Positions 7,120 through 45,900 of a DNA stretch of 64,000 nt are shown in pieces. This DNA is from a virus (Duplodnaviria; Caudoviricetes). The position numbers and the translations under genes are program-made. The stretch spans positions 1 to 64,000 of IMG/VR virus record IMGVR_UViG_3300030433_001574; one strand, written 5' to 3'. The notes under the pieces were generated by a model. That model was not told the origin of the DNA. It saw only the letters and a program-made list of their open reading frames with translations, and did no database searches. Position 1 is the stretch's first letter. The number at the start of each line of letters is the position of its first letter.

Positions 7120-9513
7120 ATGACACAAACCATGACGATAGAAGAACTGAACAATACGGAGCGCATCAAAGCGATAAAGTCACAGAAGGCGAAGGCACTG
7201 TTCACTCATCGCTCAGCCCATCAGCAGTATGCTGTTCCCAAAGACTGGCAACCACTTAACATGGTGGCTATCCATCTGACTGACACACCACTTCACTTGA
7301 CATCAGCAGGTGAACACATTGGCTACCCATGTTTCTTGAGGACTTGCCCTGAGACTCCTCGACATGGTGTCATCGAATCTGTTCGTTGTAACGATGAAGA
7401 GTCACTTGTCTCTGACTTCAAGCGCCTCGCTCAAATCATGAAGGAGGCTGACCCCAATGGTTGTATGCTTCTCATGCCATTCATTGATGCTTCATGCTCG
7501 TCAGTCATGGCTCTCTCTCATCCTGAAGTGGATGAGCATGGTGTGACCGTGATGACCACTGACCCTAAGACTGGGCTTGACACACCAGTTATGTTTCAAG
7601 GTTACAACATCATGGGTGTTGGTCACGATGGTGTCACTGCTGGTCACGGCTTCAACCTTGCATTCCCTCTCCGTGTTGATGAGTATAACAAGGACAACAT
7701 GATTCTCAACTCACTCTCTTACTCTCCTACTCGTCACGAGTTGGAGTTCGTCTTCAAGAACACCGATGACAAACGTGACCGTGGTGTCATGAACTTACCT
7801 CTCATGACTCACAACCTCACACAGATTCGTGGTGCTCCTTCTCACACTCCTGTCTTCCCTCCACCTGAAGGTGTCGATACCATTGGTATGATTGCCGCTG
7901 GCGAGGTTGTCATTCAGGACTTCATCATCATGAGTGGTCTTGAGGAAGTGGCTTGGCTTGAAGAGAACATCACGCCTGAGAAACTACCCGATGGCTTCAT
8001 GGTCGTTGAGCCTACTGGCTCTCGTCTCTCTCACATCTATGCTCACTGTCGTGGTGTCGGTGTTGCTTATGCTATCACCCCTGCTGATACCATCAACAAG
8101 GGTGACCGTTGGGTCGAGGCCGCACCCGGCTGGGTTGTCTTGGACAACGACAACAAGTTCGTGCCTAAGCCTTACCGACCCGATGCCTACCTTGCTGACT
8201 TCTCTCGTGGCCTCAAGGACGGCAACCTCTATTGGCGCAAGCAACAAGGTTGGTTCTCCACCTTCTTCCACCAGTGGGTCAGTCTCCCATACAGCAAGCC
8301 ACAAGATGTTGCATACCTTGCTGGTATGTTCTGTGCTTGGCTACCCAAAGCCATGCTCGCTCTTGGTCTTGGTGAGATGCGCCATGCTCGTAGCCTCAAG
8401 AAGAATGCTAACGCTGAACTGTTCGCTACCATGACTGCTTGTATTGGCAGTGATGTGTGGAAGAAAATCACCAACACTCCTCACCTTGACTCCACTCGTG
8501 GACACTACTACGCCGCTGTTGGACACATCGAAGTAGACTGGGGTGACTGTGCAAAGATGCTTCGCTTCTTGAACAAGCACTTCCAAAAGGGATGGTCGTC
8601 ATCATACGGTGGCCCGAAGTGGGGCGCTTCTATGTTGCAGGGCGCTGAGGTATGTGACGCTCTACAAACATTCACTGCTGAGCCTAACGAAGAAACATTG
8701 GGCGAACTCATCGTCAAGGTGAACATGGCTGAGAATGCAGTTCACAACAATGGTTCTCTGTTCAACAAGTGGTTGAGCAAGTTCGCATTCGACGCTGGCA
8801 CTGCTGGCTTCAACCCACGTCGAGACATGGACAGCATGGCCTCCGTCTTTGAGATGGCTCGTGAGTTCCTCGATGATGGTCTTGCTAATGTTCGTGCTGG
8901 CTTTGAGTCAGCCTCTCCTCCTGAGAATACATGGAGTGACATTCTCGACTATGTTGAGAAGAAGACCCCAGCCTATTGGCGTAAGACTCCTATGGCTTCA
9001 AGCAAGAATGTTCACGAGGCTCTACGCAAAGTGATGGAGATACTACCAGTTGGTTGGCGACATGGTGACAAGGGTAGCCACAACAATCCTTTGAACAAGG
9101 ACTTCATCATGTGTGGTGTATCAACTTGCACCACTTGTGCTACACACTTGCAGTGGGCTGCCAACAACCCTGCTGAGGTTTCACACTCACAAGTCGCTGA
9201 ACTCAAGACACTGTTCGATGAGCACAGCGCTTCTCTCATGATTGCTCCTCCACCTGTTGATGTGTGGCTCACTGGTTCTCAAGGTGAGACTCGTGTAAGT
9301 GTGAAGGAACAGATTCTTTCCATCAAAGCGAAAGAGTTCTTCCCTACAGCGAAGGAGTTCGTTACCTTGTATGAGGCCATCGACCCTTCTGACCCTGACA
9401 CTCCTGAGATGATGTTGATTCTCAACAAGTATCTCGCTAAGCAAGGTGATGGCCTTGAGGACTTCCTCACTGCTATGACTGGAGAAACAGAAACAAAGGA
9501 TGTGAAAGAATGA
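7120..9513 (+). CDS. PPDK/PEP-synthase-like dikinase (ATP-grasp + phospho-His swivel) fused to an uncharacterised C-terminal domain
   Basis: YPCFLRTCP..RHGVIES, LLMPFIDASCSSVM, ELEF, LTQIRG (ATP-grasp-like); VVEPTGSRLSHIYAHCRGVGVA resembles the PEP-utiliser mobile-domain motif GGxTSHxAIxxRxxGIP (His305). Confidence 0.7.
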   Translation: MTQTMTIEELNNTERIKAIKSQKAKALFTHRSAHQQYAVPKDWQPLNMVAIHLTDTPLHLTSAGEHIGYPCFLRTCPETPRHGVIESVRCNDEESLVSDFKRLAQIMKEADPNGCMLLMPFIDASCSSVMALSHPEVDEHGVTVMTTDPKTGLDTPVMFQGYNIMGVGHDGVTAGHGFNLAFPLRVDEYNKDNMILNSLSYSPTRHELEFVFKNTDDKRDRGVMNLPLMTHNLTQIRGAPSHTPVFPPPEGVDTIGMIAAGEVVIQDFIIMSGLEEVAWLEENITPEKLPDGFMVVEPTGSRLSHIYAHCRGVGVAYAITPADTINKGDRWVEAAPGWVVLDNDNKFVPKPYRPDAYLADFSRGLKDGNLYWRKQQGWFSTFFHQWVSLPYSKPQDVAYLAGMFCAWLPKAMLALGLGEMRHARSLKKNANAELFATMTACIGSDVWKKITNTPHLDSTRGHYYAAVGHIEVDWGDCAKMLRFLNKHFQKGWSSSYGGPKWGASMLQGAEVCDALQTFTAEPNEETLGELIVKVNMAENAVHNNGSLFNKWLSKFAFDAGTAGFNPRRDMDSMASVFEMAREFLDDGLANVRAGFESASPPENTWSDILDYVEKKTPAYWRKTPMASSKNVHEALRKVMEILPVGWRHGDKGSHNNPLNKDFIMCGVSTCTTCATHLQWAANNPAEVSHSQVAELKTLFDEHSASLMIAPPPVDVWLTGSQGETRVSVKEQILSIKAKEFFPTAKEFVTLYEAIDPSDPDTPEMMLILNKYLAKQGDGLEDFLTAMTGETETKDVKE

Positions 9514-10793
9514 ATTGGATGCAAGGATATGGAAGTAAAGCAGGTTGTCACACTGGTAACCCAGTAGTGTTTGAGATTGATGGTGTAAGTATACACGCTG
9601 GTGGTCACAGTCGTAACGGTGGGTGGCATCGTATGTCACCGCTACCTGACCTCGCCATCGGCCCAGCACAAGTGATGGACAATCCTCGTGCTACGGTTGT
9701 GCCTGATGGTTGGTCATGTCAAGGCTACATTGGTGGTGATACTCCACAAATTATCAGCATCGACTGGCCTGACTTCAGCATACCTCAAGATGTTCACCGT
9801 GAGTTTTGGTTGGCGCTTGTTGCTGACATCAAAGCCAATGGCATCAAGACTGTATCGACGCAGTGCGTTGGTGGTCATGGTCGGACTGGTGTGCAGTTGT
9901 GTATTCTTGGCTACCTCATGGGTGACCCTACTTGTCTCAAGCAACCCGACGCCGCTTCACTTATCGAGCATGTCCGTGACATCTATTGTCACCATGCTGT
10001 CGAGGGCAAGTCTCAGCAGACCTACGTTGCTGAGGTTCTACAGATACCTGAAGGCAAGTCACTCTTCAAGTCGTTCAAGAAGAAGAACAACTTCTCGTTC
10101 ACTGATACATCTGACTACCCCATGAAGAATGGTAAGAAGAAGGAGGACAAGGACAACTACATGCCGAAGTCTACCTACTGGGTTGAGGATGAAGATGACT
10201 ACGACGATGGCGATGGCTTCCCGACCACATGGCAACTGCATTCCTGTGGTTTGTGTGGCACACCTGAGTGGGTGCATCTCGATGACCCAGTGCCTGAGCA
10301 GTGTAGTAACTGCGGAGCACCTGAGATGATGCTATCCACTGATGCGCTGTATGATATGTCAGGCATCTGTCCTAAGTGTGACAACACTGTGTCTCACTTT
10401 GGTATGCATGATGACGGACACTGCATTGTCTGTGCGGCTGAAGAGGCTGGCATCAAGACTCGTGACGGTATGGTTCAGTGCAAGAAGTCGAAGAAGTTCT
10501 ACTTGCCTGAGTTCATGAACGTCGAGACATGGGTGTCTCGTGATGCTGAGCGCACTGCTCGTATCAAGAAAGAGGAACAGACCAAGCGAGCCAAAGACAA
10601 GAAGGCTAAGGGCAAAGGCAAGGGCAAAGGCAAGAAAGGTAAGGACTACCCTGCGAAGAAAAAGAAACAACTCAACAATAAAGAACTGAAGCGCAAGCAA
10701 GAGGAGGCTCGCTTACGAATCACACAAAGGAGTCTTGATGACTACTTAGAAGACCGTGGGTTTGACTTCGATGGGATGGAAGACTTCATCTGA
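9510..10793 (+). CDS. Cys-based PTP/dual-specificity phosphatase with Zn knuckles, Lys-rich tail and PIP-like box
   Basis: IDWPDF (WPD loop), QCVGGHGRTG (CX5R, Cys119), VEGKSQ (Q-loop-like); several CxxC; QRSLDDYL near C-terminus. Confidence 0.85.
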   Translation: MNWMQGYGSKAGCHTGNPVVFEIDGVSIHAGGHSRNGGWHRMSPLPDLAIGPAQVMDNPRATVVPDGWSCQGYIGGDTPQIISIDWPDFSIPQDVHREFWLALVADIKANGIKTVSTQCVGGHGRTGVQLCILGYLMGDPTCLKQPDAASLIEHVRDIYCHHAVEGKSQQTYVAEVLQIPEGKSLFKSFKKKNNFSFTDTSDYPMKNGKKKEDKDNYMPKSTYWVEDEDDYDDGDGFPTTWQLHSCGLCGTPEWVHLDDPVPEQCSNCGAPEMMLSTDALYDMSGICPKCDNTVSHFGMHDDGHCIVCAAEEAGIKTRDGMVQCKKSKKFYLPEFMNVETWVSRDAERTARIKKEEQTKRAKDKKAKGKGKGKGKKGKDYPAKKKKQLNNKELKRKQEEARLRITQRSLDDYLEDRGFDFDGMEDFI

Positions 10794-10829: not shown

Positions 10830-11246
10830 ATGACAAACGATTTTGGACAACCGAGACTACAAGTAAGAACGCAATTTGATACCAACCGCATTCACATTCA
10901 AGGTGTGGGTGAACCTACGGTCAATCGTAAGTATGGTATTGCACTGGAACTACGAGCACCACCTGAACTGACAGAGTGGTTAAGTGAACAAGAACCTACA
11001 CTGGCAAGCCCAGCAAGTGGGTCAGTTCTCTATGCACCACTGGAAGTTATCTCGTATGTGGAGCATGAAGGCACAGTGCAACTACTCATCAAAGGCACAG
11101 AGTTGAACCACCCAAGTGGGGCTATGCTCGATGTCAAGGATGACTCAACAGCAGTGGACACACTCATTACATTCGTGAAGAACACATCGTCAGGTCTTGT
11201 GATTGAGAGTGGCGATGTCTACTCAACTGGCGAAGAGGAGGAATGA
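10830..11246 (+). CDS. Hypothetical protein
   Basis: ORF after promoter. Confidence 0.75.
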   Translation: MTNDFGQPRLQVRTQFDTNRIHIQGVGEPTVNRKYGIALELRAPPELTEWLSEQEPTLASPASGSVLYAPLEVISYVEHEGTVQLLIKGTELNHPSGAMLDVKDDSTAVDTLITFVKNTSSGLVIESGDVYSTGEEEE

Positions 11247-12552: not shown

Positions 12553-12852
12553 ATGAACATGAGCGAAAGCAAGAACAAAATAATCACTAAATTGACGAAG
12601 ACCATCGGTGACTGTGCGAAGAAAATCGACAACCTTCAACGCATTATTCGTAACGTGAAAGAGCGTTACGATTTCAGGTCATGCCAACTGTGCGATGACC
12701 TGTATGATACACATGAATACTCCCGTTGCCCTGAATGTCCGTATTGCACTGGATGTGAACAGACAGTCGAGCAACTGCATGACAACGGAAACGGAGATGA
12801 GTGGTGCGGAGAATGCATCGAACATCGCCATGACATTGATGATTGGAGATAG
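12553..12852 (+). CDS. Coiled-coil plus multi-CxxC Zn-finger protein
   Basis: CQLC, CPEC, CTGC, CGEC. Confidence 0.7.
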   Translation: MNMSESKNKIITKLTKTIGDCAKKIDNLQRIIRNVKERYDFRSCQLCDDLYDTHEYSRCPECPYCTGCEQTVEQLHDNGNGDEWCGECIEHRHDIDDWR

Positions 12853-12870
12853 TTGATATATAAAGCAACA
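12852..12870 (+). promoter_or_regulatory. Conserved TATA promoter motif, copy 7
   Basis: GTTGATATATAAAGCAACA. Confidence 0.85.
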
Positions 12871-12894
12871 GTAAAGAAAAGAAACACAAGGAGA

Positions 12895-13500
12895 ATGATG
12901 AACATGACAAACGATGATGTAACCATAATTGGACGTAGCGGTATTCCTACCCCTACTGAGCATACGAATGAACAACTGGTGAGCAAATTTGCCTACAGTT
13001 ACAACGGTGACCACAGAGGGTGGGGTCAAGACAGGCTCTACTATCAAGGTAAAGACGACCCTGAAGATGTGAACAGCGTGTTCTTGGGCTACAAGCACAA
13101 CAACACTGGTGTTATCCTCATGCTACAGAACTACCGTCGAGCAAGCAACGGTGTCCGAACCATATACAGACTCGACGGCACAAAGACTGTGAGCACTGTT
13201 TTCAAGGATGACAGCAAGAGCAACTACTTGCACTACTTGACAAATGCTATGGATGCGATTGACTCAAAGCGTAAGAACTGGGATGTAGTTGTATGCTCAG
13301 TCAAGCCTTCAGTAGCACCTGTCTTCAACCGATTACACCTTTGGACGAGCAATGAATACATGCCTGACACTGATTTGAGCATGGTATTCCAAGCCGACCA
13401 AGTGATTCAGAAGGGATGCAAGACCATCCCTACAGTTCAGATTCCAGTTACAACAGTGACAATGGAGAAAACAAACAAGATTGAGGAGTTGATAGTATGA
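12895..13500 (+). CDS. Hypothetical protein
   Basis: ORF after promoter, AGGAG RBS. Confidence 0.75.
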   Translation: MMNMTNDDVTIIGRSGIPTPTEHTNEQLVSKFAYSYNGDHRGWGQDRLYYQGKDDPEDVNSVFLGYKHNNTGVILMLQNYRRASNGVRTIYRLDGTKTVSTVFKDDSKSNYLHYLTNAMDAIDSKRKNWDVVVCSVKPSVAPVFNRLHLWTSNEYMPDTDLSMVFQADQVIQKGCKTIPTVQIPVTTVTMEKTNKIEELIV

Positions 13501-15059
13501 GTGGAGAATGGCAAGGATGGCAAACGTGGAACACATATCTGAAAGCAGGTATCGTGGAGAACAGTGTAGATTTCAGCGAGGAAGCGATTATCGTAGACCA
13601 TGCTGTTGGTCGAACAAAGGATGCAATCGGCAAGTGCTGGCCTATGGATGCGGCAGTTGCCTACACACTGATGAAGGCTGGCCCTGATGTCAGTCTGACA
13701 TGGAGCGAGATGGTGAATACCTACACTCGTGCGGCTTCTGTCATGATGACGGGCAAAGTTGGGTATGGCGAAGTGCCTACACCTAATGTTGCTTCATGTG
13801 GTCACGATGAGGTCATGGGCTTCAAGCACGTTCTTGCTGGGCCTGTCATTACCAATCAAGGTGAGTCTGATGAGGCGTTCTACATCAACACCAACTGGGG
13901 TTCAAGCACACTCGATGCATGGCTTGAAGCAGAGCGATTCAAACTCGATGAGTTGGGTCATGACGTTGATGCACTTCGTAAAAAGTATTCAGTGATTCGT
14001 GCATCGGAGCAACTCGACTTGAGACATTATCATCTTATGACCGACTCGTTCTTTGATGAACTCGTTGATGCCTACCAAGACTTCTTTGGTAACGTCGTTA
14101 TCAAACCTGATTGGAACAACTCAAGCATCATCAAGAACACCAGCCGAACATACGGTGAGTGTGCATGGGCCGATGAAGAAGGCAAGCAGTGCCGACATCA
14201 CGACAGGCCGACCACTCGTATTTGGTCTATGATTCGTAACGGTGAGTCAGACTCTGACTTCATCACAGCATGGTATCGTGGCCCATGTCAAAGTGGTTGG
14301 AACTACGACCAGTGGCCTATGCACACTTCTTCAATGGTTGCGAGCAACGTCGTCGCATGGGATGAGATGCGTCGTGGTCTGTCTCAGGCTGTGCCTGAGC
14401 ATCAAGTCATCGCTGACATTCGTGAGTCGTTGGCTCGTATGCTCAAGCGTAACGACAACATTGTCTCTAAGGAGGGTCGTGGTAAGAACTCCAAGCACCG
14501 ATGGTCTGACTGGGGCTGGCTCGCTGAGATGAGCGCCTATGTCAAGAACACCAGTAGTAAGAACCGTAAGGAAGGTGACGTTGAGAACGGCTGGAGATAC
14601 TGCAAGGTTCGCTCTCGTCGCTCCTTTGGTCACGAGATTGCTGACTTCGTTTGGAAGCCTGTTGATGAAATCAAGGACTTCCTTGTTGGTCGTCAAGAGC
14701 CTACTGATTGGGGTGCGAGTTCCATCATGAGCAACCTCCGCTTCTCTACCAAGCAACAGTGTATCGACTTCATGAGTGCTGTTGCTCAGGCTCACATTGA
14801 CAACGGTGGTCACTACAAGGCTCGGACACATCAGGGTCTTGACAAGAACGATGACGGTAAATGGTCTATCCGTTCCAGCACCATCGAGATTGTCATGCAT
14901 GGTCGTGTAGACCCTGAAGACTATCTCAGTCCTCAAGAGGTTATGAACATGTGGCGACATGCTTCAAGGGCTGTTCTCGATGAGCACAGAAACAACTTTG
15001 AACGTGCGCCACCTTACTCAGTCTCACAAGCCCCACCTGAAAATGAGGCGAGCGACTGA
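13497..15059 (+). CDS. Large hypothetical protein (520 aa)
   Basis: Long ORF with genome-typical codon usage; no motif recognised. Confidence 0.85.
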   Translation: MSGEWQGWQTWNTYLKAGIVENSVDFSEEAIIVDHAVGRTKDAIGKCWPMDAAVAYTLMKAGPDVSLTWSEMVNTYTRAASVMMTGKVGYGEVPTPNVASCGHDEVMGFKHVLAGPVITNQGESDEAFYINTNWGSSTLDAWLEAERFKLDELGHDVDALRKKYSVIRASEQLDLRHYHLMTDSFFDELVDAYQDFFGNVVIKPDWNNSSIIKNTSRTYGECAWADEEGKQCRHHDRPTTRIWSMIRNGESDSDFITAWYRGPCQSGWNYDQWPMHTSSMVASNVVAWDEMRRGLSQAVPEHQVIADIRESLARMLKRNDNIVSKEGRGKNSKHRWSDWGWLAEMSAYVKNTSSKNRKEGDVENGWRYCKVRSRRSFGHEIADFVWKPVDEIKDFLVGRQEPTDWGASSIMSNLRFSTKQQCIDFMSAVAQAHIDNGGHYKARTHQGLDKNDDGKWSIRSSTIEIVMHGRVDPEDYLSPQEVMNMWRHASRAVLDEHRNNFERAPPYSVSQAPPENEASD

Positions 15060-15379
15060 TGGAAGACAAGGACAAATACAAACACGCTCAGTTGAAGCCC
15101 TCAGCCATCACTCCTGATGGTATGTGGATATTACCCGATGGTCACAAGTGTGACCTCCGACATGTTCAATTACAACTCCCTGATGGGAGAGGTGAGGAGT
15201 GGGTCTTAGGTGTCATACTGTCAAGCGAAGGGATATACGAAGTGTGTCCTGAATGCGGTCATGACCTCAAGCAAGGCATGGTTCTCATCATGGAGAACCA
15301 TCACTACTTGGTCGTGCGATGCTGTGACAAACTCCTCCTCTATGAGAATCAGAAGATTAACCTGAACATATGGACGTGA
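15059..15379 (+). CDS. Zn-ribbon protein
   Basis: CPECGH...RCC. Confidence 0.7.
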   Translation: MEDKDKYKHAQLKPSAITPDGMWILPDGHKCDLRHVQLQLPDGRGEEWVLGVILSSEGIYEVCPECGHDLKQGMVLIMENHHYLVVRCCDKLLLYENQKINLNIWT

Positions 15380-23471: not shown

Positions 23472-23926
23472 CGATGCAAACAAATGACAAGACAGGATTC
23501 GGTATCGGCTTAGGCTACATGCTCGGCCAACTCAAGTTCAACACCTATGTAAGTAGAGACTCACAAGCAAAGGTAGGTTACAGGGTTAGACGTTCTGTTG
23601 TGTGGCGTGACCCTCCACCAGCGCACGTTCTTCCTTACATTCAAAAGGTGCTGGGTATCGGAGACTTCCTTGCACACGAGTTTCCTATTGACGGATTCAC
23701 GACAAAGAGAGCACAGGAACGACTACGCTTACTTTTTGTCACACTCAACAAAGAGTTCTATCCAGTCGCCAACGCTTTTGCTGACAAAGTAGGTTTTCAC
23801 ATGTGGGTGTTTGTGTGTGACAACCCACCTCCCAGTGACTATGAGGCGTTTCTCAGATGGGCTGAGGTATACGATGCTGAGTATAAGTCAATTCTATTTG
23901 AAGGAACAATGGAAGAGCCAATTTGA
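23468..23926 (+). CDS. Possible degenerate LAGLIDADG-fold DNA-binding protein
   Basis: IGLGYMLGQLKFNTYVSRDSQAKVGYRVRRSV resembles the LAGLIDADG helix plus beta-hairpin, without the acidic residue. Confidence 0.4.
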   Translation: MTMQTNDKTGFGIGLGYMLGQLKFNTYVSRDSQAKVGYRVRRSVVWRDPPPAHVLPYIQKVLGIGDFLAHEFPIDGFTTKRAQERLRLLFVTLNKEFYPVANAFADKVGFHMWVFVCDNPPPSDYEAFLRWAEVYDAEYKSILFEGTMEEPI

Positions 23927-23927
23927 A

Positions 23928-23946
23928 GTTGATATATAAAGAGACA
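23928..23946 (+). promoter_or_regulatory. Conserved TATA promoter motif, copy 10
   Basis: GTTGATATATAAAGAGACA, 34 nt before ATG 23962. Confidence 0.85.
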
Positions 23947-23961
23947 GTAGAGATGATATTC

Positions 23962-24939
23962 ATGGAGAACAGCACAGAACCACAGACTTTGGAGGACATA
24001 GCAGGTCAAACTGCCTTTGTCTCCGACGCTATGGGCTGGCGTGACTCAGGTTCGTGGCCTCGTGCTGTTCTCCTACACGGTATGCAAGGCACTGGCAAGT
24101 CCACTGCGGCGAAGGTCATGCTCCGTGAGAAGATGGGTGACTTCTTTGACCCCATGAACTACATCATTGTCAATGCCTCAGACGACAGAGGGCTTGACTA
24201 CATTCGTAACCAACTCAAACAGATGAGCGCTGTCAAGGCTGTAGGCACTGACAGGAGAGGCATCATCGTAGACGAGGCTGATGGCCTCACACCAGCGGCT
24301 CAGGATGCACTGAGAGGCATCATGGAGGAGTATGCTGAGAACGTCTTCTACATCTTTACATGCAACGAGATTAGTAAAATCAAACCTGCTATTCAGAGCA
24401 GGTGTCTCGTGTATGAGTTCAAGCCCATCAGTCCTGAAGATGGGGCTGAGAGACTTATGCAATTATTCAAGCCTCATTTAGATTTAGGACTTGGTAAAGA
24501 TGCTATCACTACTGCTTCTAATCATACTAAACAGACTTGGAGTATTACCTTCATGCGACTCATGAAGTTTACTGGTGGTGACATGCGTAGCGCTATCGCT
24601 ATCATGGAGAGTCATGGTGACGCTCCTCTTGATGCTCTACAGAAGAGACTATCCGATGGGGGCAACCCATCACAAGCCGCACTCGCCGCCATTAGTGGTG
24701 ACTACGGCGACATGCGAAAGCAATTCTATTCCATGCTTGACCGAGGGCTTTCACTTACCTTCGTCATGCGAACATTCCATGAGAATCTAACCGAGTTCTT
24801 TGAGATGGATGAAGACAACACATGGACAGTCATGGGTGTGTTGGGAGAGATGATTCCCCACATGTATGAATGGCCTATCGGTTCACATTCCTTTGTTGAT
24901 TGCCTTGTGGCACGACTACGAAAGGAGGTATTATCATGA
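23962..24939 (+). CDS. rfcS: Replication factor C small subunit (clamp loader)
   Basis: PQTLEDIAGQ, GMQGTGKST, NASDDRG, DEAD, SRC, GDMR. Confidence 0.92.
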   Translation: MENSTEPQTLEDIAGQTAFVSDAMGWRDSGSWPRAVLLHGMQGTGKSTAAKVMLREKMGDFFDPMNYIIVNASDDRGLDYIRNQLKQMSAVKAVGTDRRGIIVDEADGLTPAAQDALRGIMEEYAENVFYIFTCNEISKIKPAIQSRCLVYEFKPISPEDGAERLMQLFKPHLDLGLGKDAITTASNHTKQTWSITFMRLMKFTGGDMRSAIAIMESHGDAPLDALQKRLSDGGNPSQAALAAISGDYGDMRKQFYSMLDRGLSLTFVMRTFHENLTEFFEMDEDNTWTVMGVLGEMIPHMYEWPIGSHSFVDCLVARLRKEVLS

Positions 24940-26293: not shown

Positions 26294-27295
26294 ATGGCAG
26301 GTTTTGGAAAGACGAAAGAAGCAAACAAAGCAGATGAAGAAGAAAAGGTATTGGAGGAAACACCAGCGACGAAGCGCACTGATGATGACCCCTTTGCCTC
26401 TCTCCGTAAAGAACTGGAGATGATGGACAACACACCACAGACTCACTTGTTCATGGGTATCGCAGGGCATGACAACACTGGTAAGACAGCAATCGTTACT
26501 GATGCTTTCTCCAAGTGGTTGTCCTCACCTGAGCGCACTGAACAAGAGAAGCAATACCAACTGTGGGGTCTTGACTTTGAGGGTGGCCTTGCCGCTAACA
26601 AGTCAGCATTCCATCGTGACAATGACAACATCAAGACATTTGAGCCGTGGGTCATGATGAAAGGTGACAGCACTGCTTACAACTACCCAGCAACTCACGA
26701 CAGAGTGATGTCTCTTGCACAGTTCGCTGTTGATATTGCACAGAAGCAACGTGACCCTGACTACAATGGGCCACGACTGTGGGGATTCCACGTCACTGGT
26801 GTAGACCTTTGGGACAGCGTATGCGTGAACTGTATGCGTATCGTAGACTTGAACATCGCTAAGGATGGTATCGAGGCGGCTGACTGGAACAAGAAGGTCG
26901 GCCACCAATGGGACTGGGCTATCCGTAAGACTCGTTTCCACCAACTTACAGGGCTTTGCCGAGCGCTTGTGAAACTGGGTGTGCGAGTCTTTTGGGAGAC
27001 ACACTTGCGACTGACCAACTACTCTTGGGGTAAGAACGAGGATGCGGCATCAACGTGGCGACCTGACTGGGAGAAGGCGAGCAACAACTTCGTCTATCAA
27101 ATCCTTATCTGTGAGCGCAAGGACATTCTCGATGAGGACACTGGTGATGTTGTCAAATCTGAATACACTGTCACATTCGACAAGAGCAAGACCAATGCTC
27201 GACTGCAAGGACAGAAGCGCACTACACTCGTTACAGAGGCTGGTAAAGACCCACAGTGGTATGGATTACCTGAACTCTACGACGGAACACTTTGA
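26294..27295 (+). CDS. RecA-fold P-loop ATPase (Sak4/RadB-like)
   Basis: GIAGHDNTGKT Walker A, LDFEGG, VFWETH. Confidence 0.65.
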   Translation: MAGFGKTKEANKADEEEKVLEETPATKRTDDDPFASLRKELEMMDNTPQTHLFMGIAGHDNTGKTAIVTDAFSKWLSSPERTEQEKQYQLWGLDFEGGLAANKSAFHRDNDNIKTFEPWVMMKGDSTAYNYPATHDRVMSLAQFAVDIAQKQRDPDYNGPRLWGFHVTGVDLWDSVCVNCMRIVDLNIAKDGIEAADWNKKVGHQWDWAIRKTRFHQLTGLCRALVKLGVRVFWETHLRLTNYSWGKNEDAASTWRPDWEKASNNFVYQILICERKDILDEDTGDVVKSEYTVTFDKSKTNARLQGQKRTTLVTEAGKDPQWYGLPELYDGTL

Positions 27296-27426: not shown

Positions 27427-28179
27427 ATGACGAAACTAAGCATAAACAGAAAACAGTTGTTGGGCTTCCTATCGGAGTTCGGCAAGGCAGAGGACTTGCG
27501 AATACACTTCGATGACAAATCCATGACAGCATCAGTTGCTTTCATCTCCCACTACATAACGAAGACAAGAGAAGTAGACGGAGAGGTGAAAGAGAATGGT
27601 AACCTTGACATCACTGAACTGGTCAAGGTTCGTCAGTTCCTCAAGGCGGCGAAGGATGATGTCGTGAACATTTCACAGACAGGCTCAGCCAAGACACTGA
27701 ACATCACATGCGGGTCATCCAAGATTTCAATGCCTACGTCTTCAACAATCGTCAGTGCGGCTAAGGCTTCACTGTTTGAGAAGTTGATTGAGGAGGCTGA
27801 AGCCAGCGAGTGGACAAAGTTTCACTCGTGCGACCTGAGCGTATCAGGGGTTATCACACTGGATGAGTTGGCTACTGTATCGAAGATGCGAGGCATTCTC
27901 AACAGCAGTCCTATCTTCAAGATTACAGCCAACCCCAGTGAGAATGAGTTCCTCATATCATCGGGCAAGAGGCACGAAACCAAGTTGTTCACTACGCTTG
28001 AGTTGCGTGATTCTACTGGCCCAGTCACTGGTAGCGTGAGTTCTACATACGGCTCGTGGTTGATGGACAGCATCGCTTTACTGGGTGGTGGCGAGGCCAC
28101 CATACACATAGGCGAAGCGACTATCATCGCTCTTGAGAAAGATGATGACCTACTTGTTATCGTAGACCAACGAGCGTGA
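27427..28179 (+). CDS. Sliding clamp (PCNA-like)
   Basis: 250 aa, alpha/beta pattern, located between the RFC operon and polB; no strong motif. Confidence 0.6.
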   Translation: MTKLSINRKQLLGFLSEFGKAEDLRIHFDDKSMTASVAFISHYITKTREVDGEVKENGNLDITELVKVRQFLKAAKDDVVNISQTGSAKTLNITCGSSKISMPTSSTIVSAAKASLFEKLIEEAEASEWTKFHSCDLSVSGVITLDELATVSKMRGILNSSPIFKITANPSENEFLISSGKRHETKLFTTLELRDSTGPVTGSVSSTYGSWLMDSIALLGGGEATIHIGEATIIALEKDDDLLVIVDQRA

Positions 28180-28183
28180 TTGA

Positions 28184-30592
28184 ATGATTATCGACTGGTA
28201 TTACCCTGCTGAGTCTGACAACTTTGGACAACCCAATCTCTACCTACGGACTCGTGACAAAGAAGGCACACTGCACGAAGAGCACATATGGCCTGAAGAC
28301 GAGAGGTATGTGAAACCACACTGCTGGATTCCAGTGAACACACCTGAGTGGAAACTCAATCGTATGATGGCTCGATACCCCAGTGCTCAGATTCATCGGA
28401 GTATTCGTGCCACTGGTATCGACAAGACCCCACTTATGAAGGTCGAAGTGGACAGACCTACTGACTTATGGGACATCAAAGATGAGATGCCTACTTATGA
28501 AGCAGACTTGAATTATCTCGACCAAGTGCTACTGCAACTCTATCCTGAGAAGTTACCTGAGTTCAAGCCACGAGTGTGGTATTTTGATTTGGAGTGGGAC
28601 ACCAAAGATGACTTCACATCCGTCATGGCTGTTGTAGACAGCGACCTTGAGACTCCTGTTGTATTCGCATGGGCTGATGAGGAAAGAACCAACTGTCCTC
28701 ATCCAACACACATCGTAAGTGCGAGGCACATGAAGGTGCGTGATGAAGAATACATACTGCAAATCTACCCTTCCGAAGCGGAGATGCATGAAGCCTTCAT
28801 CAAATTTCTACACAAGCGTGACCCTGACATTCTCGTAGCCCATGCTATCATGTGGGCTGACTTACCGCATCTGATGCGTAGACTGAAAGACCCTGACCAA
28901 CTCTCACCACTCGGTCAAGTGATTCGACCATTCAAAGGTAGAGATGGCTACAAGGACACTCAACAGCCCATCAAGGGTAGGCTGTGCTGGGACTCAGCGG
29001 CTCACTGGAAGAGTGGTAGTGGTTTTGAAACGCTATGGCAAAAATCAGGTCGTGGGCAACTACCTAACCGTAAGTTGAATACCATAGCAGAATTGCTTGG
29101 ACTTGGTAGTAAACTGACAGAAGAGATTGAGGGCATGACCGTTCACAATGGTTGGTATGAATACTGGAGTTATTTCGTAGATTACTGTCTCCTCGATACC
29201 ACGTTACTGCGTGACATCGACAAGAAACTCAACGCTATTGACTTCTTCGTTGCTACTCAGCAGTTGTGTGGTGTCTCGTGGGCGAGCACACACAAAGTTA
29301 CTCGATACTTCAGAGGGCTTGTTGGTAGAAGGACGGACAAGAAAGCCAAGAGTGCCATGAACCAGCGACGTGAAAAACTCACTGCCGCCCACATTCCCGA
29401 CCCTATACCGGGTCGTCACGAAGGCGTAGCCATTGTGGACTATGCTTCTCTCTATCCTAACATCATCCTCTCCGACAATCTCTCCTACGAGACAAAGCGT
29501 GACCAACCTACAGAGACTACCAAGACACTGGGCGATGGCTCACACTGGTGTCAGAAGGAGAAGGGTCTACTCCCTGCTATCGTAGAAGAGATGCTTGAAC
29601 TGCGTGCTGAATACAAGAGACTCATGCGTGAGGCTACAGACCCTGATGAGAAACTCGGTTACGACATGATGCAAACAGCGGCGAAGGTTCTCGTCAATGC
29701 GCTCTACGGTATGACTGGGATGAAAGCCCTGCAAGGTATGTGGATTGACAACGACATAGCCGCCGCTATCACACACAGAGGGCGTGAATGTATTCACCAC
29801 CTACTGACTGAAAGTGAAGAGCAGGGTTACAAATCGCTCTACGGTCACACAGATTCAGCCTTTATCCAAGTTCCCTTTGATAAAGCGACATCGCTTGCAG
29901 AGCACTTGACCAAGACTGCTAAGGACAAACTTGAGTTACCAACAATGGAAGTTGAACTTGAGGCTTACTTCGATTACTGGACGACTGCACCAGTGAAGAA
30001 TCGTTACTTTGGTATCAAGGTGTGGCCTGAGAAGAGCAAAGGTGAGATGAAGATTGCTGGCTATGAAATCAAAGCCTCCAGTTCTTCACGTTTGACCAAG
30101 CACATTCAACAAGTGGCTATGCAAATGATAGGCACTGGTGCTGATGAGACGGCTGTTACTGACGTGCTGAGAGAGATAAGCCTCCAAGTCAAGAACGGCG
30201 AGATACCGATTGAGGACGTGGCTTGCTCGTCTCGATTGACGATGGATTTCAAGGACTACAAGAGCCTACCCGCACCAGCCAAAGCCGCCATGTATTACAA
30301 CCAACACGTTGCCACCAACGCTGAAGAGCGATGGAGCAAAGGCGACAGTGTATCATGGATTTATGTCAAGGGCTTCAACAATGACGTGCCTGACTACTAC
30401 ACACTCAAAGGAGAGCGAAAGAAGGTAGACTTCGTTGCTTTCCGTGATAAAGCGGAGTTGGAGAACTACACCATAGACTGGGACAAAGTGCTCAGTGTGA
30501 TGGTTAAATCTAAACTCATGCGAATCTACGAGAGCCTTGACTGGGCGCTTGACGCTGCTTCAGGAGCGACAATGCCAAAGTCATATTTTTGA
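28184..30592 (+). CDS. polB: Family B DNA polymerase
   Basis: Exonuclease FDLE, YCLLD; DYASLYPNII, KVLVNALYG, YGHTDS, KNRY. Confidence 0.97.
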   Translation: MIIDWYYPAESDNFGQPNLYLRTRDKEGTLHEEHIWPEDERYVKPHCWIPVNTPEWKLNRMMARYPSAQIHRSIRATGIDKTPLMKVEVDRPTDLWDIKDEMPTYEADLNYLDQVLLQLYPEKLPEFKPRVWYFDLEWDTKDDFTSVMAVVDSDLETPVVFAWADEERTNCPHPTHIVSARHMKVRDEEYILQIYPSEAEMHEAFIKFLHKRDPDILVAHAIMWADLPHLMRRLKDPDQLSPLGQVIRPFKGRDGYKDTQQPIKGRLCWDSAAHWKSGSGFETLWQKSGRGQLPNRKLNTIAELLGLGSKLTEEIEGMTVHNGWYEYWSYFVDYCLLDTTLLRDIDKKLNAIDFFVATQQLCGVSWASTHKVTRYFRGLVGRRTDKKAKSAMNQRREKLTAAHIPDPIPGRHEGVAIVDYASLYPNIILSDNLSYETKRDQPTETTKTLGDGSHWCQKEKGLLPAIVEEMLELRAEYKRLMREATDPDEKLGYDMMQTAAKVLVNALYGMTGMKALQGMWIDNDIAAAITHRGRECIHHLLTESEEQGYKSLYGHTDSAFIQVPFDKATSLAEHLTKTAKDKLELPTMEVELEAYFDYWTTAPVKNRYFGIKVWPEKSKGEMKIAGYEIKASSSSRLTKHIQQVAMQMIGTGADETAVTDVLREISLQVKNGEIPIEDVACSSRLTMDFKDYKSLPAPAKAAMYYNQHVATNAEERWSKGDSVSWIYVKGFNNDVPDYYTLKGERKKVDFVAFRDKAELENYTIDWDKVLSVMVKSKLMRIYESLDWALDAASGATMPKSYF

Positions 30593-30601
30593 GGTGATAA
30601 A

Positions 30602-30745
30602 ATGAAAAAGACAAGACAAACAACACTGGACGAATACGGACTGACAACTGATGGACGAAGACAAACCAAACTCACTGAGTTTGGAATGACGTTTGAAGTT
30701 GATATAAAAAGGAACAGTAAAGACGATGTTGGTGAGGAAGAATGA
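30602..30745 (+). CDS. 47-aa tandem PIP-box microprotein (not in ORF track)
   Basis: MKKTRQTTLDEYGLTTDGRRQTKLTEFGMTFEVDIKRNSKDDVGEEE; GAGGTGA RBS; ATGA overlap with next gene. Confidence 0.7.
   Translation: MKKTRQTTLDEYGLTTDGRRQTKLTEFGMTFEVDIKRNSKDDVGEEE
30698..30716 (+). promoter_or_regulatory. Conserved TATA promoter motif, copy 11 (variant)
   Basis: GTTGATATAAAAAGGAACA. Confidence 0.75.
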
Positions 30746-36474: not shown

Positions 36475-37092
36475 ATGAGTATGAGCGATGTAATGGCACT
36501 TGATATTGAAACTGGTAACTTCTCTTGGGAGATAGGTGGTTGGGACAAGCACAGTTTGTTTGAGCCTACAGTCGTCGCCACATGGGACGGCAACGATGGT
36601 CACGTCTTTGCCAAAGAAGACATTGAGATGGCTAACGCCACAGTGCATGACCTACACCCTCGCACGTTAGGTGACCACTTACAGAAGCACATCGACGGTG
36701 GTGGCAAGATTCTTGGTCACAACATTCGCAAGTTCGATTTACCAGTGCTAAACGCCGCACTGGACTGCTGGACAGCAGGTGAACTGATTGGTAAGAGCGA
36801 GAGTATCATTGATACCAAGATGTTGATTGATAAAGCAGCATTGAGTGTGGGTAAGGTTCACACGACGCTTGACACTCTTGTTCGCTCTACTCTCGATTCA
36901 TCGAAGAGTATGCAAAGTAGCGATGCGCCAACAGCATGGCGTGAAGGTAAATTCCTTGAGGTAGCCGACTACTGCCTCAAAGACTGCCAATTGACATACG
37001 ACCTCTACATGTATGGTCGTGACAATGGTATTGTAAAGAGCCGAAGTATGGACGACGGCTCTATAGTTGAAATTGAGGTAGATTGGATATGA
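36475..37092 (+). CDS. DEDD(y) 3'-5' exonuclease / RNase H-like protein
   Basis: LDIET, GHNIRKFDLPVL, YCLKD. Confidence 0.85.
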   Translation: MSMSDVMALDIETGNFSWEIGGWDKHSLFEPTVVATWDGNDGHVFAKEDIEMANATVHDLHPRTLGDHLQKHIDGGGKILGHNIRKFDLPVLNAALDCWTAGELIGKSESIIDTKMLIDKAALSVGKVHTTLDTLVRSTLDSSKSMQSSDAPTAWREGKFLEVADYCLKDCQLTYDLYMYGRDNGIVKSRSMDDGSIVEIEVDWI

Positions 37093-41505: not shown

Positions 41506-42933
41506 TCACTCACCTCTTTCTGTAAATCTTGCAGTTTTGCTACCGCCTATGACTTCTTTATCACCGCTTCTACCTACGACACCTCTACCCATACCTCGTC
41601 CTATGATGAAACCATCGCCTGAAACACCGTGTCCAACAACTTCTGTTATGACAACTGAGACAATCTCAATGTCACCAAACAGAGCCATGTTCTTCTCAAG
41701 AACCTGTTCAATAGTATCGTCTTGCTCACCAGTGTTCTTTGTGCCTTCAAGAATGCCTTGCAGCACACCTTCGATGCCACCTTCTACGCTCAAGAATACA
41801 AGGTCAGCGATGTTCTGAGATAATCTGTGTCTTACCTCGACCAAGATTTTTCTTTGTCCGTCATACTCGATAATCATACCCGGCCTCAAATCCCAACTGT
41901 TAGGGTGACCAGCGCTTGTGAGATTACCAAGCATAACCGCATTGGCCTTCAATATGTTACGACCAATCTCTCTTGCTTGCTCGTTGCTTCGCACAGTAAA
42001 GTCACCGACAACCTGTGGTTCTTCTAACACTTCACCAGCCCGACCTGACTGCTTCTCTGAGTTGTTTACCTCAGCAAAGGCAGTATCATTTACAGCCGTT
42101 GGTAGACCCTCTACGATGACCCTGTTCGATATGTTCTCAATTGGGTTATTGACAGCAGGGCCAGTGCGAGCGTTGTGGTCGATAAATCGACTCTTCTCTT
42201 CAAACTGGAACGGAACGTAAAGCAAGTTACCAAACCTGTCAAAGTGGATGACTCGACCATCATGGCGACTAATGAACCGTAGAGCATCAACAAGCGTGAT
42301 ACCGTGAAAGTCTACGCCGACGAAACTGTTGCTGTGTAGCCTTCTATCGACTTGGGAGTTGCTCGGACTCAATGGTAGTGCGATGTTCACGGACGTAAGA
42401 GAATCAGCGATGTCTCTACTAATGCGTATAGCCAAGTCTGTTGTTCTTAAGCCAGCATCAATTGGTTGTCCAAAGTGTGCTTGCCTCTGAGAAAAGCCAA
42501 CGTCATCGAGTGTCTTACCCTTCATGTTTCTTAGAGCGAATGTAGTTCCTGTTCCGCTATTGAGAACTGATGATGTTCGCAGTCGCTCACTTTCAGCACC
42601 TTTACCATAAAGCAACACTGGTTTGTTTTTATCACTGTCACTGGTAATGCTTGAACCCAAGTAGACCACAGAACCTTCGTAGTTTCGCCCATGCGTGCCT
42701 GTGTGCTTTAGGATAACAGAATCCTGTAGTTCTGTCATGGTGTAAGTATGTGGTGTAGAGACAGCATAGGTGGTGGTTTTGCGTTGTCTCACCGTGACCT
42801 TCTTCTCCAAGTTCTTCTGTGGCGTATACTCACCAAGATGAAGGGCGTTGTCCACGAACTTTGGTTTACGCACTGCTTTCATCACAACATCCGTGTCGGC
42901 TGTTGCTCGTTTGTCTTTGAGTAAACCCATCAT
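41506..42933 (-). CDS. Putative tail hub/baseplate protein
   Basis: FDRFGNLLY..NRVIVEG..DLRPG pattern and position. Confidence 0.55.
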   Translation of the reverse strand: MMGLLKDKRATADTDVVMKAVRKPKFVDNALHLGEYTPQKNLEKKVTVRQRKTTTYAVSTPHTYTMTELQDSVILKHTGTHGRNYEGSVVYLGSSITSDSDKNKPVLLYGKGAESERLRTSSVLNSGTGTTFALRNMKGKTLDDVGFSQRQAHFGQPIDAGLRTTDLAIRISRDIADSLTSVNIALPLSPSNSQVDRRLHSNSFVGVDFHGITLVDALRFISRHDGRVIHFDRFGNLLYVPFQFEEKSRFIDHNARTGPAVNNPIENISNRVIVEGLPTAVNDTAFAEVNNSEKQSGRAGEVLEEPQVVGDFTVRSNEQAREIGRNILKANAVMLGNLTSAGHPNSWDLRPGMIIEYDGQRKILVEVRHRLSQNIADLVFLSVEGGIEGVLQGILEGTKNTGEQDDTIEQVLEKNMALFGDIEIVSVVITEVVGHGVSGDGFIIGRGMGRGVVGRSGDKEVIGGSKTARFTERGE

Positions 42934-45900
42934 GCATCACCACTGTGGTCTGATGTATTGAACGATACATCCTCTTTATGTCCCTTGCTGTGCAACGATT
43001 GACTGAATCTTGGTTTGACGGTGTAATCTTTACTCTCACCAGTTCTTCTTGGAGCATCGCTCTTGAAGTGCTGTAGTGTGTTTTCACTGATAATGAGTCG
43101 AGTAACAGTGCTCTTCAGTGTTGTCTTGTCAAAGCCAGTAACCTCTGTTCCCGGTAACTTTGGCCCTTTCGATACTGGCACAGTGTCACTACTGCTCTCA
43201 ACGAGATACACTGGTTGGTATGGCGCTGATGTGTCAGGGTTGGTAGCACGCATGTATGACCCACTGCTTGCTCTACCGTTTGGAGTCGAGTAGGTAAACA
43301 GCCCATACTTACCACCAGCAGTGGCTGTAAACGCAGTGCTACCGTTTTGCTTACTACCGCTATGCAAAGCCAATGCTGGTCTAAATACAGCGATATGCTG
43401 GTTGTCAAGGAGTCGTATAGGTCGTAGCATAAACTGCACTGCATCGTCAGTCATGTTTGTCTGACTGGCTACAGAACTCGTTGTTTGGTATGGGTTGCTT
43501 GTCTTTGTGCCACTCATGCCACTTCGTCCCCAGCCTGTATCATCGAATGGGCTGGCGAAACTGCGAGCCTCCAAGATGTAAGTTCCACCCATAGGCTTGA
43601 AGTTGCTTGTGTGGCTGAATCGCATCACACCACCATGAGGCTGAGCAGCGAAGGACAAGGATGTCAGGTCGTAGTCACCAAGCGTCTGAGAACCTGACTG
43701 CATACCACCATGCAACACAACTCTCTGACCTACACCTCTGTTGGTGTGTAGGCTGTGTGCTTCTGAGTTGATGGCTACCATGTTGGCGTTGCTACCAGTC
43801 AAGGATTCTATGGTGTCTCCGTCAATACCAATTCGTGGTGAAGAGCGAGAAACAGCATCCTTGTGAACCGATGTTCCGCTGATGGATTCTACCTTGTCGC
43901 TAACCGTCGCTTCAGGTTTAAGCAAACCATCTTCATCAACTTCCAATCGAGCGCTGATACCTCTGACGATTTCACTTGGTTGCAGTGCGTCGTTTCTTGG
44001 CCGAATCAAACCTTGACCGAATGTAGGCTCAGCAGTGTTGCTTGATAACACCACACCTGAGTTTTGGTATACTGCGCTGAGTTCAACCAATCTGTCTTCA
44101 TTGAACTGTGTTGGGAATCGCACACCACGTCCGTTACCCATGTCTCCTACTCGTAGCGCATTGGTAGGAGCAAACACATCGACCAACGTGGTATCTGTGT
44201 TATTGTTACCAGTGTTCTTTCTACCACCAAAGCGAGGTATTGTAGCCGTTGGAGATGACAGCACGTTGCCGTTGCTGAAATCAACGATACCCTTCAGATT
44301 GAAGATAGGCTTGCCATTGTTCCAAACTCGCTCAAACGGCGTGCGGTTGTTGGTTCTGTCATACTCGTATGCGTCTCCAGCATCCCAAGACGGATTGATA
44401 CCAAAACTACGCACTGGGAAGCGACGGACATCCTCACCACGAGTGTTACCCCACCAGTCAATGAGATAATACGATACAGCATCTTTGTAATACAACAATC
44501 CCATACCAGCAGAATCACCCCACCAATCTCGTATGACTGTGCTGGAGTTTCGCAAAGTGCGTAGAGCACAACCAAATCCTCTTGTCATTCGTCGTCCATC
44601 GCTGTAGCGCACTTGCCATTCGTATTTGTCAGCATTCAACATACCAGCAGCCGTTGTGCTACGCTCAAGAATACCAACATAGGTAGTTGGTAGGTCAGTG
44701 TTGCTTTGTGTGCTGTCTCCACCAGCGTAAAGCCACCCGTTACTTGATATACTCTCATACTCAATTAGTGGCCCTGCTTTGTAGCCAACAGCAAGATTGC
44801 TTGCACCTGAGTGAGTGGCTTGCTCTTGGAATGCTCGCATACCATAGTGACCCCACTGAGGTCTGTTCCAAGCCTGTCGTAGTCCAAAGCGGTAACCAAA
44901 TGGATATGTGCGTAGAGCGCTGAGTGAGCCAGTGCTTACACCGTTAGCAACTGCATAACTACCGTCATCGTCATCGTCTTCCCAATGAATCCCACCATTG
45001 TGTGCGTAACTTTGCGGTAAGTGCCACGCCGCAGCGGCAGCAGCATAGCCATCTAATCGGCTAACGAGTGGGCCACCACGACTACCACACGGCCAGTAGT
45101 TTGAAAGCATAAACGTGCCACTTTGAGATGATAAACCACTGATAGCATTGATGCCTGAGCCACTCAAGACTTCGCCATCACCGTCAAGATAAACCTTATC
45201 GCCCGACACAAGATTGCTCTCAAATATCTTGGTGTAGAGCGTAATGTCAGCACCGCTTGTGCCGTTTACTCTACCAAGAACTCGACCCTTAGCGAACAAA
45301 ACATCTCCGTTACTTACGCCAGTAACCGTATCGGTCATTGTAATAACGGAGACAGTTGTAGTTGCAACCGAACTGACAGTTCCAGTAAGTGGCTTAGGAG
45401 GCACTGGTGTTTTCATTCGTAACGTAAGTGGGCCATGACTCGCTGCGTAATTGACATCTTGATAGTGGATTGTCTCAAAGTGCTGTGGCATACTGTTGTA
45501 TGCGGCGTTATTGACGGCTCTGTCTGAGGTATGATTGACACCGTTTGTAATCCAAGTCCGACTGGCATCTGAATAGAATGTGTGAGGCCGACCCAAGTTA
45601 GGACTCCAAGCACACAGATATGCGTCGGTTAGGAAAAGACTGTTTGTATCTCTTGTTCCTGTAAGCAACTGACCGAGATTCTTGGTCAATACGCTTTCGC
45701 TGTCGTTGTTGAAAATGTCGTTTACAGACTTTGTAGAATACGGTTTACTCAACGTCAGTTTTGTGCCATCGGCTATGGTAATCCCTGTTGGTAAATGGAA
45801 CACATCAGGCTCGTTCATCGTCGCTGAACTATGACTCAGACCTTGCCGAGTTGTGTAACTAAACGATACAGTTTTGCCCGTAGAAGGGTCAATGTATTGC

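Follow-up and report, generated by a model that had tools for sequence, protein, structure and literature searches.

A viral phosphatase with recurrent PIP-like peptides in its tail may be tethered to PCNA

Introduction

Nucleases, ligases, polymerases and glycosylases usually reach the sliding clamp PCNA by way of a PCNA-interacting protein (PIP) box. In its canonical form this box reads Qxx[L/M/I/V]xx[aromatic][aromatic], and positively charged flanks raise its affinity, with flank effects of up to four orders of magnitude (PMC6881253). The PIP box of A. fulgidus RNase HII, the C-terminal peptide QKTLDDF, has been crystallised on PCNA (PMC3089482). Here we analyse a gene for a phosphatase of 427 amino acids (aa) in a tailed-virus genome (IMG/VR record IMGVR_UViG_3300030433_001574), within the first 64 kb of the 107,203-bp record, hereafter the window. 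The protein carries two PIP-like boxes in a basic C-terminal tail that is modelled with low confidence. Grounded in the motif, its context and its conservation, our best-supported reading, to which we assign a probability of about 50%, is that this tail tethers the phosphatase to PCNA.

Partial parallels exist in several described systems. In phages T4 and RB69, gp43, gp33 and gp55 have hydrophobic C-terminal clamp-binding tails of the form S/T-L-D-x-hydrophobic, which act on a viral PCNA-like trimer. In plants, the phosphohistidine dikinase GWD acts on a polymer, and the dual-specificity phosphatases (DSPs) SEX4 and LSF2, which are glucan phosphatases, take the phosphate off. Within the protein tyrosine phosphatase (PTP) fold, a conserved general-acid Asp goes with phosphomonoester substrates, and the RNA 5′-triphosphatase branch does without that residue. 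Magroviruses, for their part, are abundant but uncultured, their hosts are among the commonest archaeal groups of the surface ocean, and to our knowledge their replication biology is known from gene lists only. They are viruses of Marine Group II (Poseidoniales) archaea (PMC5434244; PMC10768690); they have their own replisome, and those of group A also code for a thermosome subunit and an SNF2 helicase (PMC5434244).

The viral phosphatase is laid out like an archaeal PIP client, with a catalytic domain, a flexible hinge, a C-terminal Q/K-x-T/S-L-D-D/E-aromatic peptide and a PCNA gene nearby, and the RNase HII peptide comes close to the consensus of its family, likewise lacking a second aromatic residue at position 8. 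Unlike the known archaeal clients, which are nucleases, ligases or polymerases, it has a PTP fold; it also differs in its tandem motifs, in the aliphatic residue at position 8, and in the long K/G tract and double zinc-ribbon-like domain that precede the motif. A short C-terminal peptide and a virus-encoded clamp are shared with T4 and RB69, whereas T4 has a bacterial host and its clients, a polymerase and transcription factors, include no phosphatase. With the small phosphatases Tk-PTP (5z5a/5z5b), SsoPTP (2dxp) and VHZ/DUSP23 (4erc, 2img), the catalytic part has in common a length of about 150–180 aa, a compact PTP fold with a general-acid Asp and a CX5R loop that closes with RTG, but sequence similarity is marginal, the WPDFSIP loop is that of classical PTPs, C13, H14, C70 and C160 are additional, and those enzymes have neither a zinc ribbon nor a PIP tail. 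Finally, the pairing with a neighbouring dikinase-like gene is like that of GWD with SEX4 and LSF2, as an analogy only, at the level of general domain classes; in the virus the two genes are adjacent, and the candidates for the polymer, if there is one, are DNA and a replisome protein.

PIP-like peptides recur in the tails of phosphatase homologues

The gene and its two boxes are placed as follows.

9510..10793, + strand: phosphatase gene, 427 aa; start codon shared in part with the stop codon of the upstream gene (ATGA at 9510–9513)
10725–10748, + strand: PIP-like box 1, QRSLDDYL, aa 406–413
10767–10790, + strand: PIP-like box 2, FDGMEDFI, aa 420–427, the last eight residues

The protein comprises five parts, namely a catalytic domain, a disordered linker, a zinc domain, a basic tract and the PIP-like motifs. 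The original prediction had quoted from it four CxxC pairs (CGLC, CSNC, CPKC and CIVC), a K/G tract and QRSLDDYL, and had read the last as an archaeal PIP box in a disordered C-terminus. All of these strings lie where they had been placed; the peptide fits Qxx[aliphatic]xx[aromatic], and the tail around it is basic and of low model confidence. The box had also been called terminal, which needs amending: it sits exactly at 10725–10748 but ends 14 residues before the C-terminus, which is itself formed by box 2.

In box 1, position 1 is a glutamine (Q406). Positions 4 and 7 are L409 and Y412 in box 1 and M423 and F426 in box 2, where the family has L, I or V and W, F or Y, respectively. Two close relatives hold both boxes (KSLDDYL and GLGDFI in L006; KSLDEYM and DLGDFI in P0012), and box 2 also corresponds to the C-termini GMNLDEWI, TLDDWI and SLDDWI of sister clades. 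An AlphaFold2 (AF2) model of the phosphatase, built on 63 homologues, assigns low confidence to the tail and places helices in it at aa 390–405 and 409–415; the predicted local distance difference test (pLDDT) score is 65–82 for the motif helix. When the last 60 residues of this tail are shuffled, a string of the canonical form Qxx[LIMV]xx[FYW][hydrophobic] turns up 0.6% of the time.

Homologues of the phosphatase number 229 at E ≤ 1e-3 and 1547 in a representative library. In 162 non-redundant homologues, the regular expression [STN][LIV]x[DENSQ][FWY] was sought in the last 60 aa and compared with 1000 shuffles. This core motif is kept in 44 of the 162 tails, against 5.5 ± 2.3 (maximum 15) in the shuffles, a comparison that overstates independence since the homologues are kin. 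Per 100 aa it occurs 0.46 times in tails and 0.08 times in other regions, and the enrichment over shuffled tails is about eightfold. Absence from homologues, which the original prediction had named as a point that would count against it, is thus not the case.

The tails are otherwise unalignable, yet the same peptide recurs past the basic stretch. C-terminal versions include YGMNLDEWI, KKTLDDWI, SRTLDEWI and GSLDDWI; internal versions include QRTLTDFTDDG, KSTLDDFT, KPTLEDYT, QKSLDSWT and GKTLDDYT, with QKTVDDYI as a further variant, and the family consensus is [K/Q/G]-x-[T/N/S]-L-x-[D/E]-[W/F/Y]. The 12 residues upstream of the motif have a net charge of +1.5, compared with −0.05 in background tail windows. 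On the tree, the motif is found mainly in a clade of 81 members, the window protein among them, where it lies 6–57 residues from the end in varied contexts. Because its position and surroundings shift within this clade while the motif itself recurs, it behaves as a selected linear motif would, and it is this conservation, not the single match, that lifts it above chance. A distant homologue in another IMG/VR record (3300030419_003599; L054) ends in DDGLDLLF, which recalls bacterial and T4-type clamp-binding peptides.

A PTP-fold enzyme with a double zinc-ribbon-like domain and a basic tract

Upstream of the tail, the model and the sequence delimit the following elements.

9531..10079, + strand: PTP-fold catalytic domain, aa 8–190; AF2 pLDDT mostly >90
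9762–9776, + strand: WPD loop DWPDF, aa 85–89; aligns with the WPD loop of PTPN4
9864–9890, + strand: CX5R P-loop CVGGHGRTG, aa 119–127
10011–10025, + strand: SQQTY, a Q-loop-like motif
10092..10211, + strand: disordered mixed-charge linker, aa 195–234; pLDDT <50
10227..10619, + strand: double zinc-ribbon-like domain, aa 240–370; pLDDT 91–97 and Cys conservation
10245–10256, + strand: CGLC, aa 246–249
10302–10313, + strand: CSNC, aa 265–268
10368–10379, + strand: CPKC, aa 287–290
10422–10433, + strand: CIVC, aa 305–308
10602..10700, + strand: basic tract, a K/G repeat plus the AKKKKQLNNKELKRKQ stretch (aa 382–397)
10602–10643, + strand: K/G repeat KAKGKGKGKGKKGK, aa 365–378

Searched with Foldseek, the model matches Tk-PTP, VHZ/DUSP23 and SsoPTP with probability 1.00 (E 8e-5), and VIA, an aligner independent of Foldseek, gives Z scores of 10–11.6 over 130–146 residues against PTEN-like, DSP and classical PTP chains. 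The catalytic residues C119, R125 and D88 are each kept in 62 of the 63 aligned homologues in which residue conservation was counted. The Pfam family Y_phosphatase scores below threshold (15.7 bits against a cutoff of 20.9; E 0.012), so the assignment is by fold and motifs, and the enzyme represents a divergent lineage. A PHROG label of 'thymidylate synthase' on one match is contradicted by both fold and motifs and was discarded. From its intact catalytic residues, the gene product is predicted to be a catalytically competent Cys-based phosphomonoesterase of the PTP/DSP fold. The general-acid Asp of the WPD loop points solely to a phosphomonoester substrate, and the fold matches do not pick out which one. 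Within the catalytic domain, away from the active site, C13, H14, C70, C160 and H162 are near-invariant (9546–9551, 9717–9719 and 9987–9995); they may form an extra structural metal site or a redox switch.

The four CxxC pairs fall into two four-Cys sets within a confidently modelled, beta-hairpin-rich fold. The residues of putative zinc site 1 (C246, C249, C265 and C268) are conserved in 57–61 of 63 homologues and those of site 2 (C287, C290, C305 and C308) in 47–63 of 63. The sole family hint for this domain is Pfam DZR, below cutoff at E 0.024, and the fold matches of the whole model all come from the catalytic domain. Confidence falls in the basic tract (pLDDT 51–55 at aa 371–390) and ranges from 49 to 82 for everything beyond aa 371. 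Close homologues also have K/G-rich tracts, and the K/G repeats vary freely among relatives. A weak match to Pfam Pns11_12 covers the lysine-rich part of the protein, and we put it down to composition.

A conserved module of three genes has the phosphatase at its centre

The phosphatase stands between a gene for a dikinase-like enzyme and one for a 138-aa protein.

7120..9513, + strand: dikinase-like protein, 797 aa; directly upstream of the phosphatase in 63 of 79 related IMG/VR loci
10830..11246, + strand: 138-aa protein with an acidic EEE tail; AGGTGA 5 nucleotides before its ATG

This three-gene module is present in dozens of viral genomes of about 100 kb. For the 797-aa protein, searches of Pfam, PHROGs and PDB profiles gave nothing usable; a language-model similarity to PPDK_N/PEP-utilizers in a feature-based atlas (score 0.91) is the sole family lead, and as a lead it is compatible with the reading of the protein as a dikinase. 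Its H305, in the sequence GSRLSH, is invariant in 30 sequences. The string QGDGLEDFL in the same protein was considered as a third PIP box and rejected, as its Q-to-L spacing is off by one and relatives have an ordinary amphipathic helix there. The 138-aa protein has a homologue in 48 of the 79 loci, directly adjacent in 37, with invariant Q11, H22, Q24, R33, Y35 and N93, and had no matches in PDB, Pfam or the atlas.

A viral PCNA-fold clamp and other docking-like peptides

A candidate docking partner is encoded in the replication block of the same window.

23923..24939, + strand: RFC-like clamp-loader ATPase; Pfam AAA E 1.5e-11, DNA_pol3_delta2 E 3.8e-11
27427..28179, + strand: PCNA-type sliding clamp, 250 aa, candidate docking partner; AF2 pLDDT 86.7, predicted template modelling score 0.84
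28184..30592, + strand: family B DNA polymerase (PolB), archaeal type; Pfam DNA_pol_B E 3e-45, best PDB match a Thermococcales PolB, E 2e-33
30602..30745, + strand: 47-aa open reading frame (ORF) directly after PolB, with canonical PIP boxes RQTTLDEYG and RQTKLTEFG

The ORF at 27427–28179, which the original prediction had put forward as the viral clamp, had zero matches in Pfam or PHROG. Its modelled structure consists of two domains that repeat a beta-alpha-beta-beta-beta topology, and has Pyrococcus and Thermococcus PCNAs as best matches in Foldseek: the top five are all archaeal PCNAs (E 7e-13 to 1.5e-11), with P. furiosus PCNA at E 6.6e-13, and template modelling scores are 0.65–0.71. Structures of archaeal FEN1 and RFC-L (PDB 1rxm and 1isq) are also among the matches. 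On this modelling evidence the ORF is a PCNA-fold clamp, as proposed. Its gene stands between those for the clamp loader and PolB, an order that relatives retain. The phylogenetic profile is non-discriminating: 18 of 23 related genomes have a clamp homologue, whether or not their phosphatase has the motif, and the five without one are the most distant records.

The 47-aa ORF has GAGGTGA upstream and forms an ATGA junction with the next gene. Microproteins of 35–77 aa follow PolB in six more genomes (L003, at 13208–13315; L004, at about 13150–13250; L094; L096; L097; L099), in which the clamps are much diverged. The counterpart boxes, with RQTTLxEF(F/G) as their general form, are KQATLFEWG with GQTTLLDFY, RQTTLFEFG with GQTQLTDFF, RQTTLDEFF with QKRLTDYE, QTKLTEYG with QTKLTEFG, and the single boxes RQTTLLEFF and RQTTLEEFG. 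These predicted peptides show the PIP motif grammar to be in use in this virus family. The microprotein could serve PolB as an adaptor to the clamp, or it could block PCNA in the manner of the Thermococcales inhibitor TIP.

Further proteins of the genome have termini or strings of a similar kind. PolB itself ends in G-x-x-x-P-K-x-Y/H-W/F in 15 related genomes (L085–L099) and in MPKSYF here (30560–30592); the conserved PKxY[W/F] ending is a candidate non-canonical clamp-binding tail. A 333-aa protein encoded between the clamp loader genes and the clamp (26294–27295, + strand), with no family match, has a strictly conserved C-terminus, QW[YF]GLPELYDGTL, which may be another docking tail. A small Cys-rich protein (12553–12852, + strand) ends in DIDDWR, and a DnaQ-like exonuclease (36475–37092, + strand) ends in VDWI, with VEW or VEWK in relatives. 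Beyond the window, a fast-evolving 799-aa ORF (12711–15107, − strand, of contig L001, equal to 102707–105106 of the genome) contains the block DF[IL]xxPxEQ[KR]RL[FY]E[FY][GD]xxHxxxYRNM twice, the second copy being kept in two relatives. Its EQ[KR]RL[FY]E[FY] strings were set aside as PIP candidates, because they belong to this conserved repeated block of about 27 aa and so probably to a folded repeat, not a linear motif.

Gene content places the genome among the magroviruses

The genome has the gene set described for magroviruses, tailed viruses with genomes of about 100 kb, with PolB, clamp, RFC, nucleases, thermosome subunit and SNF2 helicase (compare PMC5434244). The nucleases are a PD-(D/E)XK and an ERCC4-HhH enzyme; a C5 methylase is also encoded, and the group II chaperonin has archaeal thermosomes as its best matches (E 9e-86). 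By gene content, then, the genome is a magrovirus (Magrovirales), group A-like. Since this content matches the magroviruses of Poseidoniales archaea, the archaeal PIP grammar is a suitable one to apply here. In the structural half of the genome, an ORF of 5976 aa (42930–60860, − strand) adjoins ORFs of 475 aa and 777 aa; its size is exceptional for an archaeal tailed virus.

Discussion

In the reading that we favour, the C-terminal 60 residues of the phosphatase would act as a tether. The lysine-rich disordered stretch would touch DNA, the acidic face of the clamp, or both, and QRSLDDYL and the terminal FDGMEDFI would enter the hydrophobic pocket of a PCNA subunit. The PCNA bound could be the viral clamp, that of the Poseidoniales host, or both. 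Tethering would concentrate the phosphatase on clamp-loaded DNA at viral replication forks, where the enzyme probably works, and the double zinc-ribbon-like domain, placed between catalytic domain and tail, is probably a further point of contact with nucleic acid or protein. The phosphatase would act in the conserved module together with the phosphohistidine dikinase-like enzyme and the 138-aa protein. That the tail binds a clamp, that DNA is contacted and where the enzyme acts are what we infer here, and from tethering the substrate may be a nucleic acid or a replisome protein, as the original prediction had suggested.

Several observations weigh against tethering to PCNA. Position 8 is not aromatic in either box (L413 in box 1, I427 in box 2) and is mostly I, L, V or T in the family; at position 1, K (26) or G (16) outnumber Q (16) among 104 instances. 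Most family copies are for these two reasons non-canonical. Acidic residues directly follow box 1, and in that place they disfavour PCNA binding (PMC6881253). Ten strings of the canonical form occur genome-wide in 34,469 aa of large ORFs, by composition, so that a single match to the pattern means little. A 33-member sister clade, whose proteins end in a zinc ribbon, is without the motif and its genomes keep the clamp, which argues that tethering is not obligatory for the dikinase/phosphatase module. Lastly, the motif was sought on the viral PolB, the RFC-like loader and neighbouring replication proteins and not found there; the target of the phosphatase tail could for this reason equally be host PCNA.

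The lack of the motif on PolB and RFC also lends itself to a different explanation, in which the peptide docks onto a partner other than PCNA, be it the dikinase-like enzyme, the 138-aa protein, a viral single-strand-binding protein or another hub, and so binds the module together or brings the phosphatase to a protein substrate. In its favour, the three genes show tight linkage and translational coupling, and several unrelated ORFs end in acidic-aromatic tails (DIDDWR and VDWI) that could serve such a hub. We nevertheless consider this explanation unlikely, given that clades without the motif still have the module, so the motif is unneeded for module assembly; that the peptide is nearly identical in sequence to a PCNA ligand of solved structure; and that PIP-type boxes occur in ORFs within the replication block.

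The tail might instead be a non-specific polycationic element for nucleic-acid binding or solubility, with the L-x-[DE]-aromatic peptide kept for an intramolecular role such as packing on the zinc domain or autoinhibition of the active site. The free variation of the low-complexity K/G repeats, the moderate pLDDT of the motif helix and the many homologues without the motif would all agree with this. An intramolecular contact would not, however, tolerate a motif that shifts from the C-terminus to 57 residues inside, across unrelated intervening sequence, and the enrichment over shuffled tails also speaks against it, which makes this explanation decidedly improbable. Least likely of all is that the tail is a decoy that fills host PCNA pockets and shuts down host replication or repair, with catalysis unrelated to the clamp: tandem PIP-like boxes like those of the 47-aa ORF after PolB, the existence of a small Thermococcales PCNA inhibitor (PDB 5da7, one of the fold matches of the clamp) and the possession by magroviruses of their own replisome would suit it, but an enzyme whose catalytic residues are fully conserved, and which also has a flexible linker and a basic tract that may contact DNA, looks like a tethered client, not a plug.

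A broader proposal is that the module is a virus-encoded phosphorylation cycle at the replication fork, which we regard as speculative and rather doubtful. The dikinase-like enzyme would place a phosphate on a target linked to DNA or bound to the replisome (a DNA end, a modified base, PCNA itself or the 138-aa protein), and the PCNA-tethered phosphatase would take that phosphate off on clamp-loaded DNA. Such a cycle, if true, would have no described precedent, either for a clamp-directed phosphatase or for a writer/eraser pair of an archaeal virus. We found no phosphatase among PCNA clients in the literature searched, and the magrovirus literature searched mentions neither the phosphatase nor its dikinase-like partner; a phosphatase of the PTP fold that an archaeal virus encodes and PIP boxes tether, as predicted here, is undescribed within the literature searched. 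For the biology of magroviruses, a clamp-linked module would offer a concrete handle on what these viruses do to DNA or replisome proteins during infection, and the phosphatase family would supply naturally occurring, non-canonical variants of the PIP box with which to study archaeal PCNA specificity.

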